Below are positions 20,705 to 52,316 of a stretch of 64,000 nucleotides of DNA, one piece after another; position 1 is the first letter of the stretch; each line of letters starts with the position of its first letter. Both the position numbers and the translations under genes were made by a program. Location: positions 1 to 64,000 of the IMG/VR virus record IMGVR_UViG_3300037110_000161; one strand, written 5' to 3'. The DNA comes from a virus. Under the pieces are notes generated by a model. The model made no database searches, was not told the DNA's origin, and was given only the letters and a program-made list of their open reading frames with translations.

Positions 20705-20826
20705 CACTGTTCTCGCACCCACGCTTAAAGGTACAGACGCCGAGCGTCGTGGTCCGCAGGCATCTCAAAGCCACGGCCTTAGAATGGGCCGCCGTGTTGG
20801 CCCAGCAATGGAGCCCATCAGCCGGG

Positions 20827-24848: not shown

Positions 24849-24858
24849 CACAGCGACC

Positions 24859-25653
24859 TCACGGTGCAAAAGCGTACCAACTCAAGCTCCCGCTCGCATC
24901 GGACTTCAAGCACCAAAACTGATTGACACCAACGGGTGCGGGAGGCAAGCCCACGCTCGGACCTGTTGCACCCGTAGCGCCCTTCTCGCCGACAGGCCCA
25001 CGGGGGCCTGTTGCCCCGGTCGCACCTGTGGGCCCGGGATCGCCCTGGTCGCCCGCTGCTCCTTGTAGCCCTTGTGGACCGGACGGACCGCAGGGACCGG
25101 TCGAGCCAGCCGGGCCGGTGGCACCGGTCGGGCCACCGACCGGACCGGTCGCACCTGTTGCGCCTGTAGGACCAGACGGGCCAGTCGCACCCGTTGGGCC
25201 GCCGGATGGCCCACTAGGGCCCGTTGCACCCGTGGGGCCTGTGGCACCGACCGCCCCATCACTTCCCACTGGACCTGTCGCGCCCGTTGGTCCTGTTGCG
25301 CCGACCGCCCCATCGCTTCCAGCGGGTCCTGTCGCACCAACGGCCCCAGCGTCTCCTGTGGGGCCTGTTGCTCCGGCAGGACCAGTCGCACCGACAGGAC
25401 CGGTGGCACCTGTTGCCCCAACTCCGTCATTGCCCGGTGCGCCACTTGGCCCAGCGGGTCCGGTGGCACCCACAGGTCCCGTGGCACCCACAGGGCCAGT
25501 GGCCCCCTGCGCGCCGGTGGGACCCGTCGCGCCGAGGCGACCCTGCGGCCCTGTTGCGCCGACTGGGCCGGTTGGACCCGTGGGGCCGCCCGATGGACCA
25601 CTCGGCCCTTGGGGGCCCGTTGCACCGGTCGGATCAGCATAGATGAATGCCAC
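24859..25653 (-). CDS. Collagen-like protein (short)
   Basis: Gly-X-Y triplets over most of the 264 aa with a short C-terminal knob. Confidence 0.85.
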
Positions 25654-25981: not shown

Positions 25982-27874
25982 CTATTCCTCTTGATTGTGC
26001 TTGCCCTGGCCGCGCACGGGCGTCTTGGTCGTGTCGTTGAGAGTGGTGTCGCGGCTGGCGGCCTTCTCCACCTTGCCCGCGCCGGGGTTTGCCGAGAGAT
26101 CGTGGACGCCACGCGCGCCGGCGTCGCTGTTCATCTGCCCGACCTCGTTCAAGGCCGTGGATTCGGAGCCAGCCAGTTTCTCGGTAGCCGGATCGCGGCT
26201 GGTGGCCCCGGTGGTCTCGGTGCCCAATTGGCCGCCTCTTTGCTGGGCCTGCAAAATCCGAATCGCCCTGGCCGCATGGTCCGCGCGGGCCTGGATGTGC
26301 TCGTCGTCGTTGAAGCCCAGGGCCATTGAGCCGGTCTTCTCGCCGCACAGACCGGCCTCGACCGCCGCAATGATGGTCGTGGGGTCGCTGGTGGCGTAGG
26401 GGGCCTTGTCGATCTCATCGAAGATGGCTTGCATGTCGCTGACGCTGATCTTGCCTCCCAAAAGCGCCAAGACGATGTTCTTTGCCAGCTCGCGTTTAAC
26501 CTTCTGCCCGGGCACGGCGTACATCAACTTGACCAGGCTTTGGGCTTCCGCAATCCGATCGGAATCCGTCTTCAGGCTGTAGCGGTCGGGATATTTGATT
26601 GTGGCGACGTTCCGCTGCGAAACGTTTCGCTCTTCGTAGGCCGCCCAGAACTCGGCAATCTGCCGCTCGGCCGCCTCCAGGACCAAACCGATGTAGGACA
26701 GACCGGCTTCAAGCCCTTGGTTGTCCATCGACTTCGATTCCGCCGTGGCCCGGTTCGCCGTGTCTGCGACGGCCAGATGGATCAGCTTGCGGATGCCGTC
26801 CTCCAGCTTGGCTTGCAGGTCCATCGACGCCTTTAACGGTTCGCTCGACGGGTTGATGAACGAGGGAGCGTTCATCCCCTTGTCGTAGGTCCGGCCCTGA
26901 GTCACTCCGACCCGGATGTCATTGTCGGCACCAGGCTGTCCGCCCGTCGTCGCCGTCCCGTCTTCGCCCACGGAACTCTTTAAGTGGCCGCCCGTGGCCC
27001 GCTGGTCCTTTTGCTCGATATAGAAGGGGAAGTTGGCCTTGAGGGCGTAATTCACGTCGCCCGAGCCCAGGTTCAAAAGCGCGATCTGGTGCTCCACCAC
27101 GTCCTTAATCATCGAGTCGCCGATGTCCAGCAACACGAAAGGGATGCGCGTCAACTCCAACTCCACGGCCCCGGCCGGGTTCCCCTCACGGTCGATGGGA
27201 TTTCCGGCGGTGTCCAGAAATTGCAGGTTGACCAGACCCGTGTCGCGGTCGATCCACAACATGCGGAACCGCTCGACGGTCGTAGTTGGCAGGTAGGTCC
27301 GCTGGTCGAAGTTGAGAACTACGTCGCGGAGCAGAATCGCCTGGAACGTGGACGGCTCGTCCGGCTTGGAGCAAGTCCAGCTCAGGATGTCTTCAATGGG
27401 GTAGAAGTACAGGTACGGCCGATAATTCTTCACGTCCGCCAAGGTGGCGTTGCCCGGGACCAGTGGGGAATCGACGTACACGCCCACGCGGCCCATAATG
27501 AGCAACTCGGTCAGTACCTTGATGCCCAAGAAGCCGTTCATGGTGTTGCCGCGGAGATCGACGCCCAGGTCCAAGCCGTTGACCGCCCGCTGATACGCAC
27601 TGCTGCCGTCGCGCCGGCTCGTGTCCTTGAGCCGCTGGAAGATGGCATTGCGGACATCGTTGATAGCCACCCGAGCAAACGATGGGATCGGCGTCATATC
27701 CAGCCGCGCCTGGAACTCCGGTTCATCCTCCCGCGACGAGAACTTTTTGAGGTACAGCTTGCGGAAGTATTCGCCGCCGTTGTAGCAAATCCGCCATTTG
27801 CGCCAGTCCAGCAGGCTGCTGAGGTAACTCGGGTGCCTGACTTCGACGATGTTGGTGATGAACTCAACAACCAA
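25982..27874 (-). CDS. Portal protein
   Basis: Follows the terminase; HP.Y.....W.......GG N-terminus, GRVGVYVD and IPFV motifs; 630 aa. Confidence 0.85.
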   Translation of the reverse strand: MVVEFITNIVEVRHPSYLSSLLDWRKWRICYNGGEYFRKLYLKKFSSREDEPEFQARLDMTPIPSFARVAINDVRNAIFQRLKDTSRRDGSSAYQRAVNGLDLGVDLRGNTMNGFLGIKVLTELLIMGRVGVYVDSPLVPGNATLADVKNYRPYLYFYPIEDILSWTCSKPDEPSTFQAILLRDVVLNFDQRTYLPTTTVERFRMLWIDRDTGLVNLQFLDTAGNPIDREGNPAGAVELELTRIPFVLLDIGDSMIKDVVEHQIALLNLGSGDVNYALKANFPFYIEQKDQRATGGHLKSSVGEDGTATTGGQPGADNDIRVGVTQGRTYDKGMNAPSFINPSSEPLKASMDLQAKLEDGIRKLIHLAVADTANRATAESKSMDNQGLEAGLSYIGLVLEAAERQIAEFWAAYEERNVSQRNVATIKYPDRYSLKTDSDRIAEAQSLVKLMYAVPGQKVKRELAKNIVLALLGGKISVSDMQAIFDEIDKAPYATSDPTTIIAAVEAGLCGEKTGSMALGFNDDEHIQARADHAARAIRILQAQQRGGQLGTETTGATSRDPATEKLAGSESTALNEVGQMNSDAGARGVHDLSANPGAGKVEKAASRDTTLNDTTKTPVRGQGKHNQEE

Positions 27875-27886
27875 GATGGCACTCCT

Positions 27887-29581
27887 TTAGAGAACCTTGC
27901 TGATGCTGGTGCCGCCGGACGATGGCACGAACGTCAAAGCGATGTCGGCGTAGACCAAGGCATGGGCGTAGTGGTCAGGTCCGGTGTTCACGTAGGTGGC
28001 CTCCGGGTTGCCATGTTCATCTTTCTCATAGGTCCGCACGAGGTTCTTGACGTGCTCGCGGAACTCCAGCGAAATATCGGCCGGCAGCAATATCCGTGAA
28101 GGATTCATCTTGAAGCGGCCCAGCGTGCAACTCAGCCAGTTGGTGCGGTCTACCGTCGCCATAGGGGCACCGGTGTCTTCCTCGGTGATCGCTATTTCCT
28201 TGGCCGCGATTCCTCGCCGATAACGGCAGAGGTGGACATAGCCGTAAAACTTGCGGGCAAACCGCCGCGCGTCGTTGATGTTCGGATCGGCGTCCACCAC
28301 GCAGGCGAGGACTTGCCATTCCCGCATCAACTGGCCGACGTAGTTCCAGTCCTCCTCCCGGAACTTGCCGTACCAGAGCAGCTTGCCGACCGCTGCCAGA
28401 TTGATGTCCACACGGCGGTCGCCGTCAAACAGCCACTCCACTACGGTGATGTAGCCGGTCTTGCCCTGGTCCACACCCATCGTGATGCAGCGCCGACCGC
28501 CGATCCCCGGCCGCACGTCGCCGGTAATATGCTTCCGCACGGCGGCGTCCAGCATCGCGTCGGAGACCTGGGCACCTTCGCCGATGAATGGCAGGCCCAG
28601 CTTCGAGTTATGGAACTCTTTGTTGGCCGCCTCGTCGCCAAGGCCACGGAAGTGGGCAATGACGATCTCACCGGGAGAGACCGTAGACGAATAAAGCTGA
28701 TTGGCGTAAAAGCCACGGGACTCCTGCGGGCTGACTTGCAGGTTCGTCGGCTGCCACAAGCCCCCGGCCAGGAACTCCGGCTTGGCTCGATGGTCCAGCC
28801 TGTGTTTGCAGTCCTTGCACTTGATGAACGACTCGTGGCAGCGGGGATCGCTGACCGTCTCGCCGATGATCTCGACGCAATCGGGCCAGACGAACTCCGT
28901 CCATCGGCCGCAACAGGGGCATTTGAACTGGAAGTGTTCCTGCGTGCTGGTGAGGAACAGCTTGTGGATGCCGTACTTCGGCACGGTGGGCGTCGAGATG
29001 GCCAGGACATGCTTCTCGATCTGCCCGGACAAACGCTCCAAGGCCAACCAGATGGCCTTCGTGTCCATTTCGTCCAGCTCGTCCAGGACCAGTTCCGAAA
29101 CCGGAATGGACTTCAGGTTCGAGTCACCACGGCTTCCGCGGATGTACAGGACGTTGGTTCCCGTGGACTTCAGGCCCACGGTGTTGGTGTCAACGAACAG
29201 TTGCTTGAGATACGAGCTGAGCTTCAGTGCGGTGGCGAAGCGGGCCTTGGAAAAGTCGCTCGCATTCAACGTCGTGGGAAGCACGTACAGCACGTCACGC
29301 TTCAACTGGTCAAGCACAAAGAATGCCCGATTGATCCCAGCTTCAGTGATGCCCAACTGAGCCGCCTTCATCGCCACGGTGAAGGCCGCCTTGCTGTTGT
29401 GAATCTCGCGGCACCAGGGGTGATGTGCGAAGCCGTAGGGACCGGGGAAGGGTGCTCCCATCACCCTGCGATGCTCAGCCCATCGGCTACACGACTGTAA
29501 GGACGAGTTCTCCAAGCCGCGTGTGACGCCCTCTTGGAAGGCGTCCCACAGCTCGCCGCGGCTAGCGCGCTCTTCGACCAT
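27887..29581 (-). CDS. Terminase large subunit, lambda GpA-like
   Basis: KAAQLGITE Walker A variant, LVLDELDE Walker B, STPT, CPCC...CKDC Zn ribbon, MGVDQG and DHYAHA nuclease motifs. Confidence 0.9.
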   Translation of the reverse strand: MVEERASRGELWDAFQEGVTRGLENSSLQSCSRWAEHRRVMGAPFPGPYGFAHHPWCREIHNSKAAFTVAMKAAQLGITEAGINRAFFVLDQLKRDVLYVLPTTLNASDFSKARFATALKLSSYLKQLFVDTNTVGLKSTGTNVLYIRGSRGDSNLKSIPVSELVLDELDEMDTKAIWLALERLSGQIEKHVLAISTPTVPKYGIHKLFLTSTQEHFQFKCPCCGRWTEFVWPDCVEIIGETVSDPRCHESFIKCKDCKHRLDHRAKPEFLAGGLWQPTNLQVSPQESRGFYANQLYSSTVSPGEIVIAHFRGLGDEAANKEFHNSKLGLPFIGEGAQVSDAMLDAAVRKHITGDVRPGIGGRRCITMGVDQGKTGYITVVEWLFDGDRRVDINLAAVGKLLWYGKFREEDWNYVGQLMREWQVLACVVDADPNINDARRFARKFYGYVHLCRYRRGIAAKEIAITEEDTGAPMATVDRTNWLSCTLGRFKMNPSRILLPADISLEFREHVKNLVRTYEKDEHGNPEATYVNTGPDHYAHALVYADIALTFVPSSGGTSISKVL

Positions 29582-35100: not shown

Positions 35101-36429
35101 CTAATCGCCGCCACCTTCAAGCATGGCAGCGTCGAACTCCTCGTCAAATTCGGCTCGTGCAGCATCAACCATCGGCTTGATCTGCGCCCTGATCTCTTCG
35201 GAGGATTCGCTCTGATACACTTCGTCGAGAAGATCTGATCGCCCCTCGAGTTCTGCACACGCGCCAGCATAGTGCGTATCATCGTAAGCTCCTAGGATCG
35301 CCTCAACCCACACCTTGCGCCCTTCGGCTGGCGTCGACAAGTAGTCTTTCACGGCTTCTCCCGTGCTCATCAAATAGAACATCCGCCGCAGCCGTGGGTC
35401 GGACACAACCTGGTCCGTGTGGTTTTCTCGCATGAGGCGACGGAGAGTCTCTTCACCGTAAAGTTCTAGGACTGCCTGAACGAATCGTCGCTGCCGAGGG
35501 CTATCCGAACCGAGGTCGCTTCCCAACTTCCGAAAGATGCCATTGCGTTCAAGCCACGACCACGCGTCGCGGCGGCGGTAATTGCTCAAGCACTCGATTA
35601 CCACATCGAGACTCGGTCGGCTTTCGGGCTCCTTTGCGAGCATTCGCCGCACAACGTTGCCGAGGTATCTCCGCTCAGGCGACCAGCCGGAATCCTCGAT
35701 CTCTATGGGTTGGTTTCGGACGGCCATCACCAGCCGAGAATAGAGACCAATATCGGAAAAAATCGGCTGCCCGGTAAGAAGCTGATAGCCTATTGTGCCC
35801 AACGAATAGACATCCGAAGAAGTGCTGCATTCCTCCCGGAACAGCCATTCGGGCGCTGCGAACCGAAGAGTTCCCAAGAAACTCTGTGAATTGGTAACGG
35901 TCGCTTCGCTCTGAAGTCGCACGACGCCCAGGTCGAGCAACACCGCTTGGCCGCCACTGTCGCGCATTACGTTCGCGGATTTCACATCTCTATGGAGAAT
36001 ACCGTGATCGTGCAGCGCTTTCAGTCCATTGGCGGTTCCGAGGAGCAGATTCCGAGCCAAATCCGTGGGCACAGGTCCACGGCTGGTCAGGCTTTCCAGA
36101 GTCTCGCCTGTAATAAGGCTCATCACCACGTACCGCGGCAAGCCATCCTTCCAGAAGGCGGCTGTATCGTGGACCTTCACGAGGTTCGGGTGTGCCAGGT
36201 AACTGCCGACCATCGACTCTCTAATTCGCCGCGCGATTATTATCCGCGCCTCTTCGCGTTCGAAAATCGCGGGGGCGTACCATTTCAAGCAGAATCGTTC
36301 ACCTGCTCGGAACGATGTCCACGGAACACTGAGCTGAACCTCGAAGACCGTCCCGGTGGCTCCGCTGCCGAGCTTCCGTTCTATCTTGAAAAGGCCGTCG
36401 ATTATCTCGCCAATTGCAGGGAGTCCCAT
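35101..36429 (-). CDS. Hanks-type Ser/Thr protein kinase with unknown helical C-terminal domain
   Basis: GSGATG, FCLK, HRDVKSAN, DLG, APE and DVYSLG motifs. Confidence 0.9.
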   Translation of the reverse strand: MGLPAIGEIIDGLFKIERKLGSGATGTVFEVQLSVPWTSFRAGERFCLKWYAPAIFEREEARIIIARRIRESMVGSYLAHPNLVKVHDTAAFWKDGLPRYVVMSLITGETLESLTSRGPVPTDLARNLLLGTANGLKALHDHGILHRDVKSANVMRDSGGQAVLLDLGVVRLQSEATVTNSQSFLGTLRFAAPEWLFREECSTSSDVYSLGTIGYQLLTGQPIFSDIGLYSRLVMAVRNQPIEIEDSGWSPERRYLGNVVRRMLAKEPESRPSLDVVIECLSNYRRRDAWSWLERNGIFRKLGSDLGSDSPRQRRFVQAVLELYGEETLRRLMRENHTDQVVSDPRLRRMFYLMSTGEAVKDYLSTPAEGRKVWVEAILGAYDDTHYAGACAELEGRSDLLDEVYQSESSEEIRAQIKPMVDAARAEFDEEFDAAMLEGGGD

Positions 36430-36466: not shown

Positions 36467-37399
36467 TCAGCGCGTTTCGCGCCACGGCACCTCTAAGCCT
36501 ATTACGCTCAGCTTCTCCTCCAACTCATCGCGCTCCCTGCTCCGCCGAAAGCCTTGCTCCTCCCGCACGAGCAATCCTTCCTCTTCGGCCCGCCGCACGG
36601 CCATCGCGATATCGCCACTATGCAGTGCGCGGATGATTTCCAATTCCAGGCGGGAGAATGAAACTGCTTGCAACTGAAAATCCAGGAATGCTTGCCAGGT
36701 GAGGGGGCACCATTTGCTGACGATCGTTTGCCCAATGATATTCGTGTAGCTGCGAATTTCCTGCTGCGCGTGTGCGTCCATGCGGAGCAGGAGAAAATGC
36801 AACAGGTTGTGCAGATCGATCTTCCAGTACGCCTCCGTGTACGTCGCTAGAGGTAAATCCTTTCTCGCCTGCTCCCTTGCAATGCCCAGTCGAAGGCGCT
36901 CTTCGTAGACGTCACGTGCCAGTACCTGTACAGCCTTCTCGCGATCGGAGAGATGTGCCCCGACTTCCGCATCGACGGTACCGCTACTCCCTTGCTGGTT
37001 CGTCTGGGACTGCTTCCGCCATTCTCCTGGGGTCGTCCGTTGCGCCGCGTCGATTGCCACCGAGTACCGTGTCGAGTACTCGTTCACATTCGCCGTCCTG
37101 TGCCGAATCCACTGTCGCCACGTATCCATCGGGACGCGCACATGCAGCTTGATTTCGCACATCTCGAAGGGCGTCGTATGGCGATGCCGCAGTAAGTAGC
37201 GTATCAGCCCCTGGTCTTCCCGTACTTTCTTGGTTCCCGTGCCGTACGAGACGCGCGCCGCCTGCACGATGGATTCGTCCGATCCCATGTAGTCGATGAC
37301 GCGCACGAAGCCATCATCGAGGACTTTGAACGGCACACCGAGGATCTCATCCAACGCCTCCACCCGCGGCCGGCTCAACTTCTCCCATTCTTTTTCCAT
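36467..37399 (-). CDS. thyX: FAD-dependent thymidylate synthase
   Basis: AARVSY, HTTPFE, RQWIRHRTANVNEYSTRY (RHRx7SxR), REQARKDLP and HAQQEIR motifs. Confidence 0.95.
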   Translation of the reverse strand: MEKEWEKLSRPRVEALDEILGVPFKVLDDGFVRVIDYMGSDESIVQAARVSYGTGTKKVREDQGLIRYLLRHRHTTPFEMCEIKLHVRVPMDTWRQWIRHRTANVNEYSTRYSVAIDAAQRTTPGEWRKQSQTNQQGSSGTVDAEVGAHLSDREKAVQVLARDVYEERLRLGIAREQARKDLPLATYTEAYWKIDLHNLLHFLLLRMDAHAQQEIRSYTNIIGQTIVSKWCPLTWQAFLDFQLQAVSFSRLELEIIRALHSGDIAMAVRRAEEEGLLVREEQGFRRSRERDELEEKLSVIGLEVPWRETR

Positions 37400-37419: not shown

Positions 37420-39213
37420 CTATTGCTGCCTATCGGCACGGAGGATCGCCCGCGCCACCGCAGCCGCAAGGAGCGGCGGCACCGCGTCCGCCACCTGCTG
37501 CTGCTGGAAACCGATCGATCCCAAGAACTCGTACGAGTCCGGGAATGACTGCAATCTCGCCGCTTCCCGGACTGACAGACCGCGGCTCTGCGTCGGGTGA
37601 ATCAGCATGTTCTTCCGGAAGTTCCCGATCACCTTCGATGGCTCATTTCGCTTCAGGCGGAAGTAAATGCCCGTGTGGCAACGGGTGTAGTCCTTGTAGT
37701 TCCTCAGCAGCTTGTGCGGTATCGCCTCCCAGTTCTGTCCTGGCTTGATGCATTTGTACCGTTGGAGAACGTAGTCCGCGTTGCACGTCACGAGGTTCCC
37801 CTGCACGACGCCGTTCGTTTTCGATCGCATCATCACCTGGTACGCGGACAGCGTAGCGTCCGCTCTATACGGCAGGACATCGGTCTCATCTCCATTCCGC
37901 AGGAGCGGCAGATCCCCGATCGCCGCCCAGACGGACACGAGCGGTTGTTTCTCCGGCCCGTGCGTCGCTTCGAGAAACGGGATGGAGATTCCCAGGCGAT
38001 TCCCGATGACGAACACTCGTCGGCGCACCTGCGGGACGCCGAACTCTGCCGAATTCAATTCGCGACACTCCGCCTTGTAGCCGAAATCCTTGGCACCCCC
38101 GATGATCGCTTGCAGTACTTCGCCGCCGCCGAGCGTGCGAAGGCCGGCCACATTCTCCAAGACGAACCAAGCCGGTCGCATTACGTCCACGACATCCAAG
38201 AACTGTTGGTACAGATGATTGCGGGGATTATCGAGCGTCCGCGTCCGCCGGTTCGATTCAGAAAAGCCTTGACAAGGCGGCCCGCCGATGATCGCCGTCA
38301 GGTCGCCCGGTCGCAGCGCGAGCTTCCGCATGATCGCCTTTGGATCGACAGTCCGAATATCTTCTTGGACCACATCCGTGTTTCGGTGATTGTGCCGGTA
38401 GGTCGTCGCGACGCGCAGATCCTCCTCGACGGCCTGCACGATTGAGAACCCCGCTTCTTGGAACCCGACACTCATGCCACCCGCCCCCGCGAACAGATCG
38501 ACCGCAAGTGGCTTCGGCCGAACGGCGACCGGCAACGGTTTTTCCGCACGGCCGTGTGAACAGGAGCGCCGGAGACAGCACCCATCACACTGGGGCTCGA
38601 TCGCATGGCAGCGCGCGCGTCCATGTGCGACCGCGGCCACGTGGAATCCATGGCGAGACTCCGCAGGCACGGCATCCTGCAATGCCGCGTGCGCCGCGTC
38701 GTACGACAGGCGACGCGACACGAATCCCAACCGGACGCCCAAGCGAAAGGTGTGGATGTCTACCGGAAGCACCGGCATGTCGAAGCAGTATAGGAGCACG
38801 CAGCGTGCCGCCTTCTTGCCTACGCCCGGTAGCGCCACGAGCGCACGCTCGGCCTCGTCAGGCTCCATCCCTTTTAGCCAGGAGAGCGTCAGCTTGCCGT
38901 GGCGTGCCACGATGCTTCGCAGCATGTCGCGGATCAGTTTCGCCCGGCGTTGTCCCATACCGGCACAGGCGATAGTCTTACGGATCTCGGCCAATGTCGC
39001 CGTCCGTACCGCATTCCATGTTCCGAAACTCGCCTTCAGGTTCGCGTACGCCTTACGGTATTTCTTCTCATCAGTCTTCTCCGAGAGGAGGATGAAGACC
39101 AGCTCGTCGAGGGCATTCCGTTTGTTCCCCAGCTTCGGCAAGCCGTACTCTTGCAGCAGAAGCGCCGTCAGGCGCTTCACGCGATTCACATTCCGAGTCT
39201 TGGCCGTCTTCAT
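37420..39213 (-). CDS. Fusion of an HhH-GPD (EndoIII-like, 4Fe-4S) DNA glycosylase and a C5 DNA cytosine methyltransferase
   Basis: N-terminal LPGVGKKAARCVLL...PVDIH and Cx6Cx2Cx5C; C-terminal DLFAGAGG, GGPPCQGFS, ENV, QVRRR and SVREAARLQSFPD; ATG 39213 overlaps the upstream stop (ATGA). Confidence 0.9.
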   Translation of the reverse strand: MKTAKTRNVNRVKRLTALLLQEYGLPKLGNKRNALDELVFILLSEKTDEKKYRKAYANLKASFGTWNAVRTATLAEIRKTIACAGMGQRRAKLIRDMLRSIVARHGKLTLSWLKGMEPDEAERALVALPGVGKKAARCVLLYCFDMPVLPVDIHTFRLGVRLGFVSRRLSYDAAHAALQDAVPAESRHGFHVAAVAHGRARCHAIEPQCDGCCLRRSCSHGRAEKPLPVAVRPKPLAVDLFAGAGGMSVGFQEAGFSIVQAVEEDLRVATTYRHNHRNTDVVQEDIRTVDPKAIMRKLALRPGDLTAIIGGPPCQGFSESNRRTRTLDNPRNHLYQQFLDVVDVMRPAWFVLENVAGLRTLGGGEVLQAIIGGAKDFGYKAECRELNSAEFGVPQVRRRVFVIGNRLGISIPFLEATHGPEKQPLVSVWAAIGDLPLLRNGDETDVLPYRADATLSAYQVMMRSKTNGVVQGNLVTCNADYVLQRYKCIKPGQNWEAIPHKLLRNYKDYTRCHTGIYFRLKRNEPSKVIGNFRKNMLIHPTQSRGLSVREAARLQSFPDSYEFLGSIGFQQQQVADAVPPLLAAAVARAILRADRQQ

Positions 39214-40193
39214 GGAGGCAGCCCGTCGATGAACAGTGTATCGGCTCCCGACGAGTAGTCCCGCACGTTGTATTCGCCGGGCACACAGTACGTGACCTGT
39301 ATCTGCGGAAACTCCTCCACGAGCAGCAGCACCGCAAGCGTGGACAGCTTGGTGCTCATGGGAGCCAGTACGACGTTGCTCTCTCGCAGGCACGGCTCCA
39401 CCAGGCACCGCAACTGCGTATAACATTCGTGGATGTCGGCAGTTGCGAAACGGAACTCCTCCACGTCCTGACGGGACAACACCAACTCCTGCTCCGCGAT
39501 ATTGCGAGCCAGGAACCGTTCGGTCGTCGGCGGATCGCCGATGCCCATGAGCACCTTCTTCGGCTCATGCTCATCAATGACCTTCAAGACACGATCAGGC
39601 TCGAACCCAGCGAGGACAGCCAAGACCGTCGGCTGACTCGGGTCTTGGACACCCGAGAACCCAACGACGTTCCGGACGCTACGGAATCCTCGACTCAGCC
39701 ACGATCCATGGTCGGCCGGAGACACGTAGACTGCGCGCACCGTGGGCTTGGGCTCGAACGATCGGAGGAGGGCGGAGGCGATGAGAAGCGATTCCCTATT
39801 AAACGTCGTCGTGTCGATCGTCACCGTGGGTTGCTGATCCTGCGGCTGCCAGTCCGTCAGTAACGCCTTCCGTAGCGTCTCCAGTTGCTTCGGTGCGTCG
39901 AACAGCGAACCCTCCACGACATCCACCCGATCCGCGTGTCGCGCGAGAATTGTAATCAACTGGTACAAGTGCGGCCGTGTACCCACACCCTGGCAGCCTT
40001 CGAGGCACTCGCTGTTGGCGTAAATGATCGCCTGGCGAGCCCGGTATGTCGGCGGCAGGCACTCCGCGGCTTTCACGCTCCGCGGCTCGAAACTCGCGCA
40101 CGCGAGGAACAGATCGTCAGGCTTGCCAACAATTGCCGGCTGAAGCACCTGATCCCGAATCGCTTGGGCAATCGTACATCGGAAGGGACTCAT
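39210..40193 (-). CDS. Hypothetical protein, two Rossmann-like (CARF-like) repeats
   Basis: Paired motifs CASFEPR/LAGFEPDR and IDTTTFNR/APMSTK; ATGA-coupled on both sides. Confidence 0.6.
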   Translation of the reverse strand: MSPFRCTIAQAIRDQVLQPAIVGKPDDLFLACASFEPRSVKAAECLPPTYRARQAIIYANSECLEGCQGVGTRPHLYQLITILARHADRVDVVEGSLFDAPKQLETLRKALLTDWQPQDQQPTVTIDTTTFNRESLLIASALLRSFEPKPTVRAVYVSPADHGSWLSRGFRSVRNVVGFSGVQDPSQPTVLAVLAGFEPDRVLKVIDEHEPKKVLMGIGDPPTTERFLARNIAEQELVLSRQDVEEFRFATADIHECYTQLRCLVEPCLRESNVVLAPMSTKLSTLAVLLLVEEFPQIQVTYCVPGEYNVRDYSSGADTLFIDGLPP

Positions 40194-42019
40194 TCCTTCT
40201 CCTCCCCAGGGTCGCTCGGGAATAGTGGTCTGTTCTCGTCGTCCTCCACCACGCCGAGACGCATCCGGACGAACCGAGGAGGATCGCTGCAAGCAAGCTC
40301 CAAATGGTCGGAGCTCAATTGGATACGTCCTTCAAAGCCCGTTGGATCGAGCTTGAAGACCGGGCACAGGCGACGATTCAAGATGTACCAGGGCTGGCGT
40401 CCACCGCCTTCTTTCGTGCTGTAGGTGCGACGTTGGAAGTACCGATGTTGCACGCCGAGTCGCAGGATTTCCTCCAGGTTCGACGAGAGCGACTCGCGCA
40501 CAGTGAAGGAGAACACGCGAGCCTCGCGCGCCGATGGATCATGCAGCCGTTCGTAGAAGAGACGCCCCAGGGACTCGATCAACGTGCGCAACGCGTCCAA
40601 TTGGCTCCAATTCTCCGGCGGAAGATCCTTCCGGATATCCTGGAGCTTCACGTCCAGGAACTCTTCCGAGTACCGGTAGCAGACTTCATCCTGCACGCTC
40701 GGCGGTACTGCGCGCAGTTCACCCAGCTTCGCCCCTTTCTTCACGCATGCGTCCACCATGAGATAGCATGGTTCCAGGAAGTCCCGCACGATGCCCGACG
40801 AAAGATGCACCAGGTTCTGGAATCCAGCATAGCTCTTGCGCTGCTTCTTTCGTTTCAGTTCCTGAAACAGCCGCGCCGTCGCGTAGCGCGTGACGTAGTC
40901 GCCCTGCCTCCCCGGCTCTCCCGCCTTGTGCCACTCCTCTGCCGTCTCTTTCTTGATGTCGTCGAAGCGCTGCCGTTCCGTGTCATTCACCGGGAGGAAC
41001 TGGTCGATGTTCTTCTCCGGGAGCGGGGACAACGTCAGGCGGCGCTCGGCGATGAGTCGTACTTTGTTGGCGTAGTCGGACTTCGATTGGGTGTACAACT
41101 CCTCCACGTTGACTTCCGAGTAGTCATGCGGTTGCTCAATCAGGCCGCCCCGTAGCGTCAGGAGCGTGTCGTACTTCTCCCGTTGTGCCGAGACTTTCAC
41201 GCAAAGCCATTGGTTATCTCGGTTCGCGACCCAACTGTTGACGATCCTCTGTTGCACTCGGTTTAGGCGGTCCGCATCATCGAGGAGCACATACACGGAC
41301 GCACCACGGATCACCGGAAGGTCGCCTACCAACTGCATGAACGGCAACAGGAAATCATGGTAGCCGCTGGTCGCCCCCTCGTACTGCGTCTCGCCGCGGC
41401 CGAGGCACCGCCAGCGCAAGAATCCTCCGATCTTCAGATTCTCCAGGCTGAACAATCGGTGCAGCCAGCCCAGCGGATCAACGGCAATGTCGTTCGATTC
41501 CGTCGCTCCTCGCCCCGATGCGGCAATCGATGCCGGCTCGAAGAGCATGATCACCTTCTTCGCGAACGCCGTCAGCTCACATACGCCGATCACGCCGGCC
41601 GCGAACTGATCGCGCAAACACACAATCAGCCGATCCGCAATGGTGATGTTCAGGAGGTGCTCGCTCAAGATCGCCGTCGCCGACTCATCGAGCGTCTCGA
41701 ATTCCGTCTTGTTCAACTGCCCTTCCTTGCAGGGGCAGTACACGCCGAGGAATGGTTCGGACGTGCTGAAGACCTTCTCGATCCCGCCATGCACGATGCC
41801 CTGGCACTGTGGCTCCAAGTACCGCAGCATCATGCTCTTGCCGGAGCCTCTCGACCCCCAAATGAACGTGTGCCGACGCTGGCGGACCGTTTCGATCTGC
41901 GTGTACTGCTCGATGAAAAGGCCGACGAGTTGCTCCGGGGGCAACTTCTCCGGGCTCTCGACCACGAAAGGGTTACCGGGTAACAGGCCGGGAGTCGCAA
42001 GTGTATTCATATCGGTCAT
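40190..42019 (-). CDS. ORC/CDC6-like (STAND-type) P-loop ATPase with C-terminal winged-helix-like region
   Basis: NPF, GSRGSGKS Walker A, VLLDDAD Walker B, YAGF..L..LSSG.VRDFLE; ATG 42019 overlaps the HD gene stop. Confidence 0.8.
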   Translation of the reverse strand: MTDMNTLATPGLLPGNPFVVESPEKLPPEQLVGLFIEQYTQIETVRQRRHTFIWGSRGSGKSMMLRYLEPQCQGIVHGGIEKVFSTSEPFLGVYCPCKEGQLNKTEFETLDESATAILSEHLLNITIADRLIVCLRDQFAAGVIGVCELTAFAKKVIMLFEPASIAASGRGATESNDIAVDPLGWLHRLFSLENLKIGGFLRWRCLGRGETQYEGATSGYHDFLLPFMQLVGDLPVIRGASVYVLLDDADRLNRVQQRIVNSWVANRDNQWLCVKVSAQREKYDTLLTLRGGLIEQPHDYSEVNVEELYTQSKSDYANKVRLIAERRLTLSPLPEKNIDQFLPVNDTERQRFDDIKKETAEEWHKAGEPGRQGDYVTRYATARLFQELKRKKQRKSYAGFQNLVHLSSGIVRDFLEPCYLMVDACVKKGAKLGELRAVPPSVQDEVCYRYSEEFLDVKLQDIRKDLPPENWSQLDALRTLIESLGRLFYERLHDPSAREARVFSFTVRESLSSNLEEILRLGVQHRYFQRRTYSTKEGGGRQPWYILNRRLCPVFKLDPTGFEGRIQLSSDHLELACSDPPRFVRMRLGVVEDDENRPLFPSDPGEEKE

Positions 42020-43044
42020 GGCTTCAGCGCCTCGGCAAGGGTCTCCGGACGCCACTGCGGGTGGCGCTCGAAGAACGGTTGGAACAGTCCGACGCCCGGA
42101 TATGACGTGTGGTCCAGGCCGCAATCGCCGATGGGCAGCGTCAGGGTGTCATAGCCGCCGTGGCGTTCGGCTCCTCGGACGAGCGTCAGCCGGGCCTCGA
42201 TCTCCCGGATAGATGCGTATCTCGCCAGGCTCGTGCCACAGTAAATCCGTTCGTTATTCATTTTCTCCAGTCGGCACAGGACGTACTCCAGCACGGAGAT
42301 TTTTCCCTCACCATCGCAGCGCCCGTGGAAGTCTCTGCAGGGGCACCGACGCAGAATCGCATCCGTGTCGAGTTCGATCGTCACGACGATTCTCTCACGC
42401 TCCGGTTCCGGCCGGGCGCTCACGACCGCCCTGGCGTACTGCCAGTAGATCTGTTGGCCTTCCGGTACGTCGGGAAGCAGTGCAAGACTAATGCGTGAAC
42501 GGTTCTCGGACACCTCATCGGCGAACTTCAAGACGGCGGCGAGTGTTCGGGGATACACCTGGTACGTGACGGAGCCCATCGCGCAATCTTCGTCGGGTTT
42601 CGGGACGCTCAACCCCCTGTCGCCCGCATGCGCACGGACGATCTCGTTGACGAGGCGCTGTGTCGTAGGGCATGGGAAGCCAAGCGTGCGGATGCTCTCC
42701 ATCAACTTGAGCACCCGATCGGCATGATTCGAACGACCATAGACCATGCCCACGTCGTGCCAGATGATGGCGGCGAGCATGAGGAACAAATCCATCGTCG
42801 TGAGATCCGATTTGCTCTTCAACCGCGGTGCGAGCAGGTAGCCGGCAGTCTGGATGACCGACTGGATGTGCGGCTTGCCATGATCCGTGTAGTACGGGCA
42901 TGCGGTTTGCACCCACTCGTAGTACTCGGTTTCCAAGTACTGTCGCATCGTCTCGTACCGATGCCACAGATTCTCAGCGTTCGCGTCTTTCGCAGCGCGT
43001 CGCTCAAGTTCCCGCTCAAGGCTCGGCGTGTCTTTCATGCTCAC
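42016..43044 (-). CDS. HD-superfamily phosphohydrolase (conflict-system HD-CE type)
   Basis: YTDHGKPH, WHDVGM, H, AH and LAAVLKFADE motifs. Confidence 0.8.
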   Translation of the reverse strand: MSMKDTPSLERELERRAAKDANAENLWHRYETMRQYLETEYYEWVQTACPYYTDHGKPHIQSVIQTAGYLLAPRLKSKSDLTTMDLFLMLAAIIWHDVGMVYGRSNHADRVLKLMESIRTLGFPCPTTQRLVNEIVRAHAGDRGLSVPKPDEDCAMGSVTYQVYPRTLAAVLKFADEVSENRSRISLALLPDVPEGQQIYWQYARAVVSARPEPERERIVVTIELDTDAILRRCPCRDFHGRCDGEGKISVLEYVLCRLEKMNNERIYCGTSLARYASIREIEARLTLVRGAERHGGYDTLTLPIGDCGLDHTSYPGVGLFQPFFERHPQWRPETLAEALKP

Positions 43045-48779: not shown

Positions 48780-49529
48780 TCAATGTGCCGGCAAAGCACC
48801 TTCCAGGGTGCGAAAGCGATTGATCCTACCCAAACACTCGGATGCGTGACGCTGGAACAGTCGCCATACAGCCGGTTTGGTGTAAGCCTTGCCATCGCGG
48901 GTGAAGTGGCCGTTTTCGTTGAGCCACTGGGCGATCTCGTCCAGCGTGCGTCCGTCGGCCCGCAGTTCCTTTATCGTCGGGACCAGGTGGGCGTACTTCC
49001 TGTCGGTTTCGGCGCGACGTTTCGCGGCCGACCGCTGCGTCGCCTTCCTGAACCCTCGCAGGTGCTCGCGGCCCTGCCACGCACCCTCGCGGGCCGAGCC
49101 CAGCTTGACGCCACGGGCCCTGGCGGCGGCCAGGGCCTTTCTCGTCCGCTCGCCGATAAGTCGCGCCTCCTCTTGGGCCACGGCAGCCAAGATGTGTAGC
49201 GTCAGGGTGTTGGCCCCCTTGCAATCGCAGCATACGAAGTCCACCTTCGACTCCATCAAGGCTGCCGTGAAGGCGACGTTGCGGGCAAGCCGATCCAGTT
49301 TGGCGACCACCAGCGTGGCGTTGGAGAGCTTCGCATGGGCGAGGGCCTTCGCCAGCTCCGGTCGATCGGGGGTCGTTCCTGTCTCGATTTCGGTGTAGTG
49401 GGCGATCTCGCTGCCACCCGACTCAGCAATCAGCTTCAAGACATCCATTTGTTGGGCCTCAAGACCCAAGCCCGACCTGCCCTGACGCTTGGTGCTGACG
49501 CGGTAGTACGGAATGAAGCGTGCGGTCAT
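48780..49529 (-). CDS. Serine recombinase (resolvase family) with C-terminal recombinase/HTH domain
   Basis: YYRVST catalytic Ser, GLEAQ, RPEL, KLDRLAR and E...I.ERT motifs. Confidence 0.9.
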   Translation of the reverse strand: MTARFIPYYRVSTKRQGRSGLGLEAQQMDVLKLIAESGGSEIAHYTEIETGTTPDRPELAKALAHAKLSNATLVVAKLDRLARNVAFTAALMESKVDFVCCDCKGANTLTLHILAAVAQEEARLIGERTRKALAAARARGVKLGSAREGAWQGREHLRGFRKATQRSAAKRRAETDRKYAHLVPTIKELRADGRTLDEIAQWLNENGHFTRDGKAYTKPAVWRLFQRHASECLGRINRFRTLEGALPAH

Positions 49530-49551
49530 CGTGGTGTGTCCTTCTAGTATT

Positions 49552-49579
49552 ATCATACCACGAAATGGCTGAATGTCAA
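49552..49579 (-). promoter_or_regulatory. sigma70-like promoter of the serine recombinase gene
   Basis: TTGACA-N16-TATGAT with a TG extension. Confidence 0.7.
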
Positions 49580-50247
49580 ATCGCCAAACGAGATTTTCGG
49601 AGTGGCGGGGACGGCTTTTCAGCAAGGCGCGACATCCACGAACGTCGAGATGGCATTCCGGGGCGCCATCCCACGCCTCACGATCCAAGCGGGGGCACCC
49701 AGCGAGGAACACCAGCGCGGTGGCCCAACCTATCGTCATGCGGAGCTGGGTGCGCGAGGCTTGTGCGGCCCGGTGAACGTTTTCCTACCGGAGGGCCAAT
49801 CCAGTCGCTGCTCGGCTCTCCGTTTCCGGACCGATGCTCGCCGCAACCCTTGTGGCCCTTGTGCCGGGGTTTGCACCGGGGGGTGGGATGAGGTAGGATT
49901 GAATCGACAATTTGAAATTGACGCGCAAGCGTCGAGTCACTGCTTCCCAACGAACGACCAACCTGGGCTTCCGAGCCCTTGAACGTGAAGGCAGTGCTTG
50001 ACCGCGCTTCCCCGAAAGGGGGAGCGTCGGCCGGCACTGTTTCACGTTGCCCCTTGGTCGGGGCGTTGGGAGCAGTCTGGTTTGACGCTCCCCTGTCTTT
50101 TTTCGGGGCCTGCATGACCGCACGCGATCGTCTTGCTCAACAGTTCGACGAATTACGCGATAGGGTTCGCGCTCTGTCCACAGTCATGAGCTGGCCCGGT
50201 CTGCCACAGGTGGGCCTTGTTGCCGACATCGATCTCACAGGTGCATC

Positions 50248-50708: not shown

Positions 50709-51102
50709 TCGCCAAGGCCGTGAACACGGCGTTGGACTCTTCGCAGCCAGCCAGGGCGCGCTTCCACTCGTTGACCATGTATCGGGTCACGCCCCAGAAG
50801 TGTGCTACGGCCACCTCGTCTTCTTCTGCCACGGCGCGGACCAGGCCGGCGAACAGAATCGGCATGAGGCCCTTGTGCCGGCCACGCTTGCAGTGGAAGC
50901 CCGGCCAGGGAATCGGCGCCTCAGTCATGCCTTCCACCGTGACATCCCCGTAATACTCGTCGTGGACCGTCGAACCGACCTTGACGCTCGGCGGCATGTA
51001 CGGGCCGGCACGGAACGGATACCCGTTGGCCAGCGGATATTCGACGGCCGTCGGCTGCTCGCCGCTGTCGCGGGGCTTCGCCCTTTGTTTTGCAGCCGTC
51101 AC
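50656..51102 (-). CDS. HTH-containing hypothetical protein
   Basis: AVAHFWGVTRYMVNEWKRAL helix-turn-helix pattern; GTGA overlap with the upstream gene. Confidence 0.6.
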   Translation of the reverse strand: MTAAKQRAKPRDSGEQPTAVEYPLANGYPFRAGPYMPPSVKVGSTVHDEYYGDVTVEGMTEAPIPWPGFHCKRGRHKGLMPILFAGLVRAVAEEDEVAVAHFWGVTRYMVNEWKRALAGCEESNAVFTALAIKRADPAFRWKYGYPQV

Positions 51103-51833
51103 GCCGTCTTCTCCATGCACGGGATGATTTGCGGCTTGCCGCCGCGATCCTTGACTTTGCCCAGAAAACCGTCACCGAGGTAGCGTTTCAGCAACCGCCA
51201 CACCGACACCTGATTGAATGGATGGCCAGCCGTAGTCGTATGCCCATTGTTGTTCAACCATTCGGCGATCTCGTCCATCGTCTTGCCGGCTTCCCGCATT
51301 TCCTTCAAGGTCGGCATGATGAAGCGGTAAGTCTCTTCGGTGCGCTGCCGCCGCAACTTTGCCGACTGGGCGATCGCTTTCTTCGTCCCCCGCAAGTGCT
51401 CCCGACCTTCCCAATGGCCAGGCCGTGCCGACCCCAGCTTGATTCCCTTCCTCTTGACGGCCTCGGCCAGGGTCCGCTTCGTCCGCTCGCTGATCCGCCG
51501 CGACTCCTCCTCGGCCGAGGCGACCAGGATGTGGACCGTGAACTTGTTGCACTGCTCGTTATCGAGACACGCGAAGTCCACGCGACTCTCAAGCAAGATC
51601 GCGAGAAACCTGGCGTTTCGCCCAAGGCGGCCGAGTTTCGCGATGACCAGGACCGCCTCGTCGCGGCGGCACTGCTCAAGGGCTTCCACCAATCGGGGCC
51701 ACTGCCGCTTTCCTTCCACGAATTCGGCGATCAACGCGCCGTTGTTGAACTTGACGAACTCCGCCACAGCCGAGCGGTCGGTCTGCCGATAGTGGTAAGA
51801 GACATACTTGACTTTTGTCGTATGGATATTCAT
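51099..51833 (-). CDS. Serine recombinase paralog with degenerate catalytic motifs
   Basis: Collinear with 48780-49529 (KLGSAR.G.W.GREHLRG, DEIA.WLN.NGH) but YRVST becomes YRQTD and DRLAR becomes GRLGR. Confidence 0.8.
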   Translation of the reverse strand: MNIHTTKVKYVSYHYRQTDRSAVAEFVKFNNGALIAEFVEGKRQWPRLVEALEQCRRDEAVLVIAKLGRLGRNARFLAILLESRVDFACLDNEQCNKFTVHILVASAEEESRRISERTKRTLAEAVKRKGIKLGSARPGHWEGREHLRGTKKAIAQSAKLRRQRTEETYRFIMPTLKEMREAGKTMDEIAEWLNNNGHTTTAGHPFNQVSVWRLLKRYLGDGFLGKVKDRGGKPQIIPCMEKTA

Positions 51834-51867
51834 AATCAACCCCGCTTTATTTCTGGCCTGTAGCGCA

Positions 51868-51896
51868 AGCTTACACCACCTCCAAGGGAAAGTCAA
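51868..51896 (-). promoter_or_regulatory. sigma70-like promoter
   Basis: TTGACT-N17-TAAGCT upstream of 51833. Confidence 0.5.
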
Positions 51897-52316
51897 ATGG
51901 ACGCAAATGTGGTCACGCCGATGCTGACGCTTTTCCGTTCCGACGAACCTTCCTATCAACCGCTTCATCCCTCAAAATCGCTTCAACCCGAAGACGGCGA
52001 TCCGCAGGCGTCGCTGGAAAACTTGAAGCAGCTCGGACTGGTGATTCAGGAGATCTGGGCGCGGAAGGGACTCTCCCGAATCTTGATCCAGTTCGCCACG
52101 GGCGAACAATACGTTGCGCTCGGCTTGCGGAACCCGGCGGCTTTGGCTTTTCTCGCCTCGAACGCCGGCTTCGGCGACTACCACGAACTGGAATCGTTCT
52201 ACGCCCGCCTGCCGGCCGACTATGACGGCAAGCTGCCCGCCGTGACGGATCGCCACGGCATGCTGCCGCCGAAAGAGTACGACGACGCAATCCCCGCACC
52301 CGCAGGCGACCGGTAA
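51897..52316 (+). CDS. Hypothetical protein
   Basis: 139 aa, AAGGGA RBS, GC3-rich codons. Confidence 0.55.
   Translation: MDANVVTPMLTLFRSDEPSYQPLHPSKSLQPEDGDPQASLENLKQLGLVIQEIWARKGLSRILIQFATGEQYVALGLRNPAALAFLASNAGFGDYHELESFYARLPADYDGKLPAVTDRHGMLPPKEYDDAIPAPAGDR

Follow-up and report, generated by a model that had tools for sequence, protein, structure and literature searches.

A phage-borne fusion of an EndoIII-like DNA glycosylase with a C5 cytosine methylase, a candidate for built-in repair within a predicted immune operon

Results and discussion

A glycosylase and a C5 methylase in one reading frame

In a window of 64,000 nucleotides (nt) of viral DNA (positions 1 to 64,000 of the IMG/VR virus record IMGVR_UViG_3300037110_000161, a linear contig of 73,270 bases with a CheckV completeness of 60%), we examined a minus-strand gene which joins an iron-sulphur (Fe-S) DNA glycosylase of the HhH-GPD type to a C5 cytosine methylase. 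A single polypeptide with a glycosylase and a complete C5 methylase had been proposed in an original prediction, and this was confirmed. The interval 37420..39213 (-) is, by translation, one intact open reading frame (ORF) of 597 amino acids (aa) with no internal stop, and both Pfam domains are present in it. The mechanical ORF extends upstream to 39426 (668 aa). We took the ATG at 39213 as the start because, in an ATGA, it shares bases with the stop codon of the preceding gene and because homologues begin there (P0002, for example, starts MKT...). The start at 39426 was rejected on the same grounds, its extra 71 residues overlapping the upstream gene for a CARF-like protein. The gene is composed of the following parts:

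38560..39213 (-): glycosylase domain, residues 1-218; EndoIII-like HhH-GPD with a 4Fe-4S motif (Pfam PF00730)
38812-38814 (-): Lys134, aligned with the lyase Lys of E. coli Nth
38758-38760 (-): Asp152, aligned with the catalytic Asp of E. coli Nth
38560-38610 (-): Cys202/209/212/218, aligned with the Fe-S cluster cysteines of Nth and MutY
38509..38559 (-): inter-domain linker, residues 219-235, SHGRAEKPLPVAVRPKP, gap-free across 28 homologues
37420..38508 (-): C5 cytosine methylase domain, residues 236-597, and the stop codon TAG (37420-37422); PF00145, TIGR00675

HhH-GPD was placed by Pfam at residues 42-183 (35.2 bits, cut-off 26.2; 38.6 bits in the genome scan), and all the strings quoted in the original prediction were found in the translation, namely LPGVGKKAARCVLL, PVDIH, C202-x6-C209-x2-C212-x5-C218 and ILLSEKT. 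The linker of 17 residues has zero gaps among 28 full-length homologues, with R232 and P233 conserved. In an AlphaFold2 (AF2) model of the whole protein (mean predicted local distance difference test score, pLDDT, 88.2; predicted template modelling score, pTM, 0.87), the 10-residue blocks spanning residues 201-240, i.e. the linker region, have a mean pLDDT of 87-94. Such a gap-free and confidently modelled linker would fit coupled action of the two halves on one DNA site. When the full-length model was compared with the PDB by Foldseek, the 50 best matches were methylases only (DNMT1, MET1, ZMET2, M.HaeIII), and no solved chain spanning both domains was among them.

We also looked for a stop or frameshift between the domains. 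None was present in the five contigs, from three sources, that carry the exact 597-aa protein, nor in Logan contigs from three non-source DNA runs of peat and permafrost metagenomes (X7 record 15, X8 record 19 and X10 record 5), which bridge 38499-38559 with 0 gaps. Contigs of the RNA library X15 cover 8 of 30 bins, including 38386-38581 across the junction, which does not in itself prove transcription. About 80 clusters at 90% identity have the same glycosylase-methylase architecture and are 53-69% identical to the fusion. The architecture is already visible in public databases, where the named rows are annotated as methylase only; some of these proteins, from Thalassoglobus and Calycomorphotria, are called merely 'DNA (cytosine-5-)-methyltransferase' by NCBI.

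Broken versions of a near-identical gene occur on two ENA contigs of 98,868 and 16,105 bases (P0003 and P0123 on one, P0122 on the other), each with several indels inside the single gene. These are probably assembly indel errors. A real gene split was judged unlikely, given five intact contigs against two broken ones, multiple indels per broken gene and three non-source runs free of indels. A further variant, P0084 (388 aa, 93% identical, on a contig of 5,110 bases which is without ~1.7 kb), has the glycosylase and the ~60 first residues of the methylase domain (to ~295) fused in frame to the ~95 last residues of the flavin-dependent thymidylate synthase ThyX. It is either a natural deletion which killed the methylase while sparing the glycosylase, or an assembly chimera.

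Catalytic residues of the two halves

The alignment of the glycosylase used E. coli Nth and MutY of NC_000913.3 as references. As had been predicted, the Lys of the EndoIII lyase position and the catalytic Asp are present: K134 and D152 align with Nth residues which we take to be K120 and D138. Across the 28 full-length homologues there is no variation at D152, H154 or the four Cys, and conservation of K134 is at least 90%. A similar picture was seen in 38 fused forms from several clades, in which the Lys is kept in 35, the Asp in 36 and each Cys in all 38. The unusual pocket or intercalating segment ILLSEKT, also pointed out in the original prediction, was found to differ from its counterpart in relatives that stand alone. 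In this fused clade, 15 of 30 members have E at position 45 and 18 of 30 have K at position 46, whereas 79 of 152 stand-alone relatives have Q at position 45, and position 46 is varied there, most often N, R or Q.

The methylase is complete, as had been claimed. PF00145 covers residues 238-591 (200.9 bits, E 4.6e-59) nearly from end to end (profile 4-323 of 324), and the dcm model TIGR00675 is matched above its cut-off (175.2 bits against 100.65, E 2.5e-51). The full set of motifs is present, with motif I (DLFAGAGG) carrying the S-adenosylmethionine-binding FxGxG, motif IV (GGPPCQGFS) with the PCQ Cys (Cys314, 38272-38274), and ENV, QVRRR and REAARLQSFPD. Residues F241, G243, G245, P313, C314, Q315, E353, N354, V355, R397 and R399 are invariant in the 28 homologues. 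Since K134, D152, the four Cys and the methylase motifs including the PCQ Cys are all conserved in these homologues, both halves look active, as far as sequence can tell.

As a separate observation, the methylase half (37423-38508) is nearer to eukaryotic DNMT1/MET1 than to any solved bacterial methylase, and the likeness includes the region before motif IX. In a sequence search of the PDB, mammalian DNMT1 came first (2.2e-37) and Arabidopsis MET1 next, ahead of M.HaeIII (3.2e-31) and M.HhaI; Foldseek with the AF2 model also put DNMT1 and MET1 at the top, in the same order.

The glycosylase belongs to an unusual EndoIII group

Although the domain carries EndoIII hallmarks, it did not reach the cut-offs of canonical Nth models in NCBIfam (nth TIGR01083, 90.5 bits against 211.7, E 1.1e-25; PRK10702, 61.7 against 405). 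The model of the DR2438-type glycosylase (NF053634) gave 124 bits (E 6.1e-36), below its cut-off of 400, and the MutY-type model TIGR01084 18.8 bits against 286.5. When the whole domain was searched against the PDB with phmmer, Deinococcus radiodurans EndoIII-1 (8a5c/4unf) was the best match (E 2.4e-28, 102.4 bits), followed by D. radiodurans EndoIII-3 (4uob; E 1.6e-20, 76.8 bits) and by Arabidopsis ROS1 (E 2.6e-18, 69.6 bits, residues 65-167 only). Further down, in this order, came E. coli Nth (8.3e-16), the Nth of Geobacillus, and human NTH1 and OGG1. Mig.MthI (1kea, E 5.2e-7) was among the weakest of the 47 PDB matches, and MutY was absent from them. From the PDB ranking, the glycosylase falls into the unusual group of D. 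radiodurans EndoIII-1 and is neither of the Mig nor of the MutY type. In a FastTree phylogeny of 201 domain sequences, a branch of length 1.0 with support 98 set the clade apart from E. coli Nth and from housekeeping Nth-like genes.

The two Deinococcus proteins resemble the fusion in their Fe-S cluster, Lys and Asp, and in an insertion of ~9 residues after the helix preceding HhH, relative to E. coli Nth. About one third of positions are identical; however, the Deinococcus proteins stand alone, whereas the fusion has the methylase and E45/K46. An excerpt of PMC10523315 places them among the 'unusual EndoIII' enzymes, whose classical activity is weak or missing: EndoIII-1 (DR2438) is described there as a weak, mostly monofunctional glycosylase on thymine glycol and single-stranded DNA, and EndoIII-3 as having no detectable classical activity.

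Fusions to C5 methylases arose repeatedly

Next to the orthologues of the fusion, many other relatives of its glycosylase were found. A search with the N-terminal domain among 1.84 billion cluster representatives gave 7,398 matches, 261 of them at E <= 1e-30. The best 150 representatives (50% identity) are mostly stand-alone proteins of 200-390 aa. A C5 methylase is fused in 22 of them (21 by hidden Markov model count, plus P0084), with the glycosylase first in 15 and the methylase first in 7. Among the 10 longest representatives all 10 are fusions of a glycosylase and a C5 methylase by Pfam, and no fusion partner other than a C5 methylase was seen among the best 150.

On the FastTree phylogeny the fused forms do not group together. 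Its well-supported branches require a minimum of seven separate positions for the glycosylase-methylase order and of four for the reverse one, and no fewer than 17 changes are required between the fused and the unfused state. Fusions are absent from one large sub-clade of 75 stand-alone proteins. A single fusion event is impossible, because both gene orders exist. Furthermore, the partner methylases of other glycosylase clades are 27-36% identical to this methylase, against 57-65% within the orthologous family. These comparisons indicate that fusions to C5 methylases arose repeatedly and independently, in both orders.

Glycosylase and methylase are also found as separate adjacent genes (L097/L159, L099/L158 and L150). 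The L150 pair sits among the housekeeping genes purK, prfC and acyl-lipid genes, and the contexts of L150, L157, L158 and L159 are heterogeneous, with no consistent nuclease partner. The glycosylase is tied to C5 methylation, not to one defence system. Two of the other loci have particular layouts. At L158:276-5482 (= G167:C173), a frame of 572-680 aa, depending on the start, has a ~350-460 aa N-terminal part without assignment and a C-terminal glycosylase. Behind it come a C5 methylase in a gene of its own, a GHKL (HATPase_c_3) ATPase and a gene resembling O-methyltransferases. At L084/L156 (G002:C484), a glycosylase-methylase fusion of 746 aa bears a 100-aa N-terminal extension.

The fusion is the fourth gene of a predicted immune operon

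The fusion gene follows three other genes in the order HD-CE, ORC/Cdc6-like ATPase, CARF-like, fusion, and ThyX comes after it. The first three junctions are ATGA overlaps:

42016..43044 (-): HD-CE phosphohydrolase, 342 aa, first gene of the operon; PF24391 with 63.6 bits (cut-off 27), HD dyad in ...IIWHDVGM...
40190..42019 (-): ORC/Cdc6-like AAA+ ATPase, 609 aa; PF24389 (ORC-CDC6-like), E 7.6e-91, profile 1-571 of 571
39210..40193 (-): CARF-like protein, 327 aa; PADLOC CARF6 model PDLC01917, E 4.9e-68, residues 11-325
36467..37399 (-): ThyX flavin-dependent thymidylate synthase, 310 aa; TIGR02170 with 175.4 bits (cut-off 87.9), PF02511

The ATPase has a Walker A (GSRGSGKS) and a Walker B motif (VLLDDAD) and ATGA overlaps at both its ends. 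The CARF-like protein has no match in Pfam or NCBIfam. ThyX begins 20 nt past the stop of the fusion, with GGAGGA in the spacer. From its family match, HD-CE is a predicted nucleotide-targeting effector of the operon. According to excerpts of bioRxiv 10.64898/2026.01.15.699771, 'CE' stands for conflict effector (citing Nicastro et al. 2023), and HD-CE and Calcineurin-CE are predicted nucleotide-degrading immune effectors defined in that same 2023 study.

In order to see how stable this arrangement is, we collected the 80 best genome loci of this methylase family, one genome per species, and seven viral loci, and called partner genes with tblastn at E <= 1e-5. At least one of the three partner genes was present in 75 of the 80 genome loci, the ATPase in 72 and all three in 53; several loci short of partners are cut by contig ends. 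All three partners were present in six of the seven viral loci. Because the partner genes are conserved beside this methylase family, the methylase is a core part of a four-gene system.

The situation of the glycosylase is different. It is fused in only five of the 80 genome loci (L001-L004 and L010), the other 75 being without it, and six of the seven viral loci hold the system unfused. Given partners in 75 of 80 loci against a glycosylase in five, the immune operon can do without the glycosylase, which is an accessory. In metagenome contigs, patterns specific for the glycosylase detected 22 loci, of which ~15 were orthologous fusions, and every orthologous fusion with upstream sequence had the CARF-like, ATPase and HD-CE genes upstream. 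Supply of the glycosylase in trans was considered and rejected: in three of four genomes with unfused systems (G001, G003 and G004) there was no close copy elsewhere, the best matches (E 3.5e-9 to 6.9e-14) being ordinary paralogues, and the fourth, G002, has another glycosylase-methylase fusion (L084).

This also bears on an earlier suggestion that the glycosylase acts in place of a missing nuclease, which had misread the context: the operon already contains the predicted HD-CE effector together with the ORC/Cdc6-like ATPase and the CARF-like protein, and most systems do without the glycosylase. In two loci, fusion orthologues stand in other surroundings, namely downstream of a DUF499-like AAA ATPase and a helicase (L001:2605-9722), and downstream of a 1,414-aa helicase, a PD-(D/E)XK nuclease and a 762-aa protein without assignment (L002:179-9761). 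Their glycosylase halves are 55-56% identical to that of the fusion. The fused methylase module appears to have been exchanged between defence systems.

Vsr beside the unfused systems

We also examined whether another repair enzyme accompanies the unfused systems. With E. coli Vsr as a query, and counting matches within 900 bp of the system span, a Vsr homologue was present at 17 of 81 unfused loci and at none of 19 fused ones (Fisher p 0.037, with no control for flank length). The Vsr loci are L006, L009, L011, L014, L023-L026, L030, L032, L035, L037, L061, L071 and L123-L125. The Vsr gene lies directly next to the system, often immediately behind ThyX or the CARF-like gene and in other cases in front of the methylase, and Vsr appears to be an optional component of the system. 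Since Vsr homologues accompany these 17 unfused systems, T:G repair is a recurrent add-on of this methylase family. No Vsr was found when the phage record itself was searched.

A model of built-in repair

Pairing of a C5 methylase with T:G repair has precedents in dcm-vsr of E. coli and in M.MthTI-Mig.MthI, and C5 methylases are known to bind mismatched target bases tightly. We propose, and give about an even chance of being right, that the fused glycosylase provides built-in base-excision repair of methylation-derived lesions (T:G, U:G or thymine glycol opposite G, Tg:G) at the sites of the methylase. According to this model, the C-terminal DNMT1-like methylase would mark the DNA of the phage and of the lysogen as 'self', and this mark would serve the predicted immune operon with its ORC/Cdc6-like ATPase, CARF-like sensor and nucleotide-degrading HD-CE effector. 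The N-terminal EndoIII-1-like Fe-S glycosylase, possibly an apurinic/apyrimidinic (AP) lyase too, would be an accessory repair head, tethered by the short fixed linker, that clears away the mutagenic lesions to which cytosine methylation leads, at the sites of its own methylase or close to them. These lesions could be T:G from deamination of 5-methylcytosine (5mC), U:G from enzyme-promoted deamination of cytosine, or Tg:G from oxidation of 5mC. The base-excision repair of the host would afterwards restore C. In this way the head may stand in functionally for Vsr or Mig, although it comes from a different glycosylase lineage.

The model is suggested by four observations taken together: the glycosylase is dispensable for the operon, it is tied repeatedly and exclusively to C5 methylases, its catalytic residues are kept, and elsewhere Vsr occupies the corresponding niche. 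Of the three functions offered in the original prediction (a built-in substitute for Vsr, a writer-eraser and a restriction glycosylase in place of a nuclease), the first fits the comparative data best, while the last depended on the misread context.

Several points weigh against the model. The conserved Lys is what one typically finds in enzymes that remove modified bases, as opposed to normal T, and the known T:G and A:G mismatch glycosylases (Mig, MutY) are without it: position 134 is Lys in the fusion and in Nth, but Ser in E. coli MutY, and Mig presumably has Tyr there. The similarity to Mig is low, and MutY is missing among the PDB matches. As for substrates, thymine glycol, on which activity is weak, is named for the nearest characterised relative, EndoIII-1, in the excerpt of PMC10523315, and T:G activity is not reported there. 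The tree which separates the fusions was built with FastTree only and has many open forks, and some short rows counted as 'alone' or 'fused' are gene fragments. As for the Vsr census, its loci are not phylogenetically independent, and in 64 of the 81 unfused systems neither Vsr nor a glycosylase is nearby. When at least 600 bp of flank was required on both sides, Vsr was present at none of 12 fused against 14 of 62 unfused loci (p = 0.11), and with at least 900 bp at none of nine against 12 of 59 (p = 0.34). The complementarity of Vsr and fusion thus has the expected sign but is not significant with flank control, and we treat it as a hint.

Alternative explanations

It is conceivable that the glycosylase is an arm of the defence itself, attacking invader DNA at unmethylated sites (a type-IIC-like 'restriction glycosylase') or at hypermodified bases, and nicking it or signalling to the CARF-like, ORC/Cdc6-like and HD-CE proteins. 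The gene does lie in a prophage defence operon, its orthologues occur in other defence-like contexts, and a nuclease-less pair of methylase and glycosylase such as that of L150 could alone be a restriction-modification pair. The accessory status described above nevertheless speaks for a defence independent of the glycosylase, as it is absent from 75 of 80 genome loci and six of seven viral ones, and the predicted effector is already encoded. In addition, closely related copies that stand alone next to a methylase consist of little more than a catalytic core (~230 aa), in which a domain for reading sequence is not evident, and in unfused systems the equivalent accessory position is filled by Vsr, a pure repair enzyme. 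HhH/EndoIII-like domains do sense hypermodified bases in END nucleases, according to an excerpt of PMC12191111, which also cites a paper on defence glycosylases; however, the END sensors are described there as having lost their catalytic residues, which the fused glycosylases keep. On balance we consider a role in attack unlikely.

Another explanation starts from the plant demethylases DME and ROS1. The head might excise 5mC or oxidised or otherwise modified cytosine as these enzymes do, either proofreading off-target methylation or stripping foreign patterns. A likeness to the DME/ROS1 branch had been noted in the original prediction, and over the core it holds: with residues 65-167 as a query, ROS1 is the top solved match (62.4 bits, E 4e-16), ahead of EndoIII-1 (50.4), OGG1 (38.7) and E. 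coli Nth (29.9), with ~37 of 100 aligned residues identical by manual count. The lyase Lys and Asp are kept, as in bifunctional modified-base enzymes, the partner methylase is DNMT1/MET1-like by sequence and fold, and the recurrent exclusive fusion to C5 methylases would suit any 5mC-centred activity. Over the whole domain, however, EndoIII-1 is nearest (102.4 bits against 69.6 for ROS1). A check for a ROS1 likeness peculiar to the fused clade spoke against it, because stand-alone relatives without a nearby methylase match ROS1 equally well (P0183 with 72.1 bits and P0128 with 53.3 bits); the likeness would then be a property of the whole EndoIII-1-like group. Of the 30 Planctomycetota loci of the clade, 25 have no C5 methylase within 1.5 kb. 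Moreover, DME and ROS1 carry long insertions, whereas the domain of the fusion is a compact, contiguous stretch of 218 residues, and the making and removal of the same mark by one polypeptide would be a futile cycle unless regulated. Excision of 5mC by the fusion is thus quite improbable in our judgement.

A broader version, in which the EndoIII-1-like lineage comprises dedicated '5mC-side' glycosylases and is the prokaryotic stock of DME/ROS1, with the present head excising 5mC or a derivative of it, so that the protein would be a single-chain writer-eraser or, on foreign DNA, a nuclease-free restriction glycosylase whose excision products or nicks could feed the CARF-like, ORC/Cdc6-like and HD-CE proteins, seems to us equally far from probable.

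Least probable of all, and very doubtful in our opinion, is that the head is an ordinary EndoIII for general removal of oxidised pyrimidines, its fusion meaning only co-expression: all EndoIII hallmarks are present and the nearest characterised relative acts on thymine glycol (excerpt of PMC10523315), but the housekeeping Nth-like genes of the same genomes branch separately, the score does not reach the cut-off of the nth equivalog model, the distribution of the clade is patchy (a match at E <= 1e-25 in 36 of the 401 Planctomycetota genomes sampled), and the many fusions, in both orders, are to C5 methylases and nothing else.

Comparison with known systems and significance

Both Dcm-Vsr and M.MthTI-Mig.MthI resemble the fusion system in that a repair activity is genetically bound to a C5 methylase; in E. 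coli K-12, dcm and vsr overlap according to the annotation. Vsr is an endonuclease of another fold, whereas the partner here is EndoIII-1-like and the link covalent, with T:G activity as a candidate by analogy. Mig is a distant HhH-GPD relative, which presumably lacks the Lys. The plant enzymes DME and ROS1 (7yhq, 7yho) share with the fusion an Fe-S HhH-GPD domain with Lys and Asp and a functional tie to 5mC, but the match to ROS1 is limited to the core, and 5mC excision by the fusion is putative.

The operon corresponds to HD-CE/ORC-CDC6-like predicted immune systems, which are already known as Pfam families (PF24391, PF24389) and were reportedly described by Nicastro, Burroughs, Iyer and Aravind in 2023 (Nucleic Acids Research, NAR): its ATPase matches PF24389 end to end and its first gene is HD-CE. 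It differs from them in that the methylase has an extra glycosylase head and in that the operon is carried on a phage. END nucleases provide another case in which an EndoIII-like domain was recruited into a defence protein; in these, following an excerpt of PMC12191111, inactivated EndoIII/Ogg domains are fused to PLD nucleases with no methylase, whereas in the fusion the catalytic residues are kept and the partner is a methylase. In a literature search, neither this operon nor a fusion of an EndoIII/HhH-GPD domain to a C5 methylase was found described, nor was an assay of such a fusion; the likely source papers lay outside that search, and we do not claim that either is unpublished.

Cytosine methylation is mutagenic and needs a countermeasure. 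The textbook examples are Vsr in bacteria and Mig in archaea, so that the pairing of a methylase with T:G repair is in itself well established. The present data point to a third answer which has arisen repeatedly, an EndoIII-1-like Fe-S glycosylase covalently tied to the methylase. Such fusions occur in phages as well as in several phyla, and their defence contexts are of at least three kinds. The 'unusual' EndoIII enzymes of groups 1 and 3 would thereby gain a plausible role in the cell. As one prokaryotic polypeptide here combines a writer of the DNMT1/MET1 type with a domain related to the core of ROS1, the origin of the eukaryotic methylation/demethylation toolkit becomes testable by phylogenetic and biochemical means. 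A methylase with a tethered, site-directed base-excision head might also be a natural template for targeted base-excision tools. Should the head attack foreign DNA after all, it would represent a new type of restriction enzyme.

Neighbouring genes and the phage

ThyX adjoins the system also elsewhere, in 13 of the 80 genome loci, in two of the seven viral loci and in L155, across several phyla (L006, L009, L011, L013, L014, L019, L020, L037, L041, L048, L065, L066, L070, L123, L125 and L155), for example in Chlorobium, Chromatiales, Trueperaceae and Latescibacterota. These companions are 47-78% identical to the ThyX of the window (61-78% in 13 of the 16 loci, 47-51% in L013, L037 and L066). 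A kinase gene and a promoter-like site flank the operon:

35101..36429 (-): Ser/Thr protein kinase, 442 aa, 37 nt after ThyX; PF00069 with 126.4 bits
43140..43167 (-): promoter-like site TTCACA-16-TATAAT, 11 of 12 matches, ~95 nt upstream of the HD-CE start

Promoter-like sites are not enriched in the region (3 against 2.4 in shuffles), which makes this one a weak candidate. The kinase was matched by the PADLOC models mad6 (3.6e-48) and PD-T4-6 (1.4e-46), and by NCBIfam MAD6 with 109 bits, below the cut-off of 460; its C-terminal half (~160 aa) is without a family match. It had no match beside the system in the 87 loci examined. Since it is not conserved beside the system elsewhere, we set it apart as probably a second, independent gene of a prophage defence islet.

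The remaining part of the window contains phage genes (PHROG matches for the structural and packaging module) and recombinases:

6425-29581 (-): phage structural and packaging module
10859-14539 (-): tape measure
18298-19731 (-): major head
19820-20722 (-): scaffold
22668-24869 (-): collagen-like tail fibre (GC content ~0.69 around 24-26 kb)
25985-27874 (-): portal
27890-29581 (-): large terminase
2744-5884 (-): three tandem tyrosine recombinases of 348, 310 and 401 aa, close to an end of the window
48783-49739 and 51102-51968 (-): two serine recombinases

From the terminase, portal, major head and tape measure genes together with the recombinases, the element is identified by gene content as a temperate tailed phage or prophage, a circumstance which the original prediction had overlooked. 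The recombinase set could represent more than one integrated element, or an element with a recombinase trio residing within the phage.

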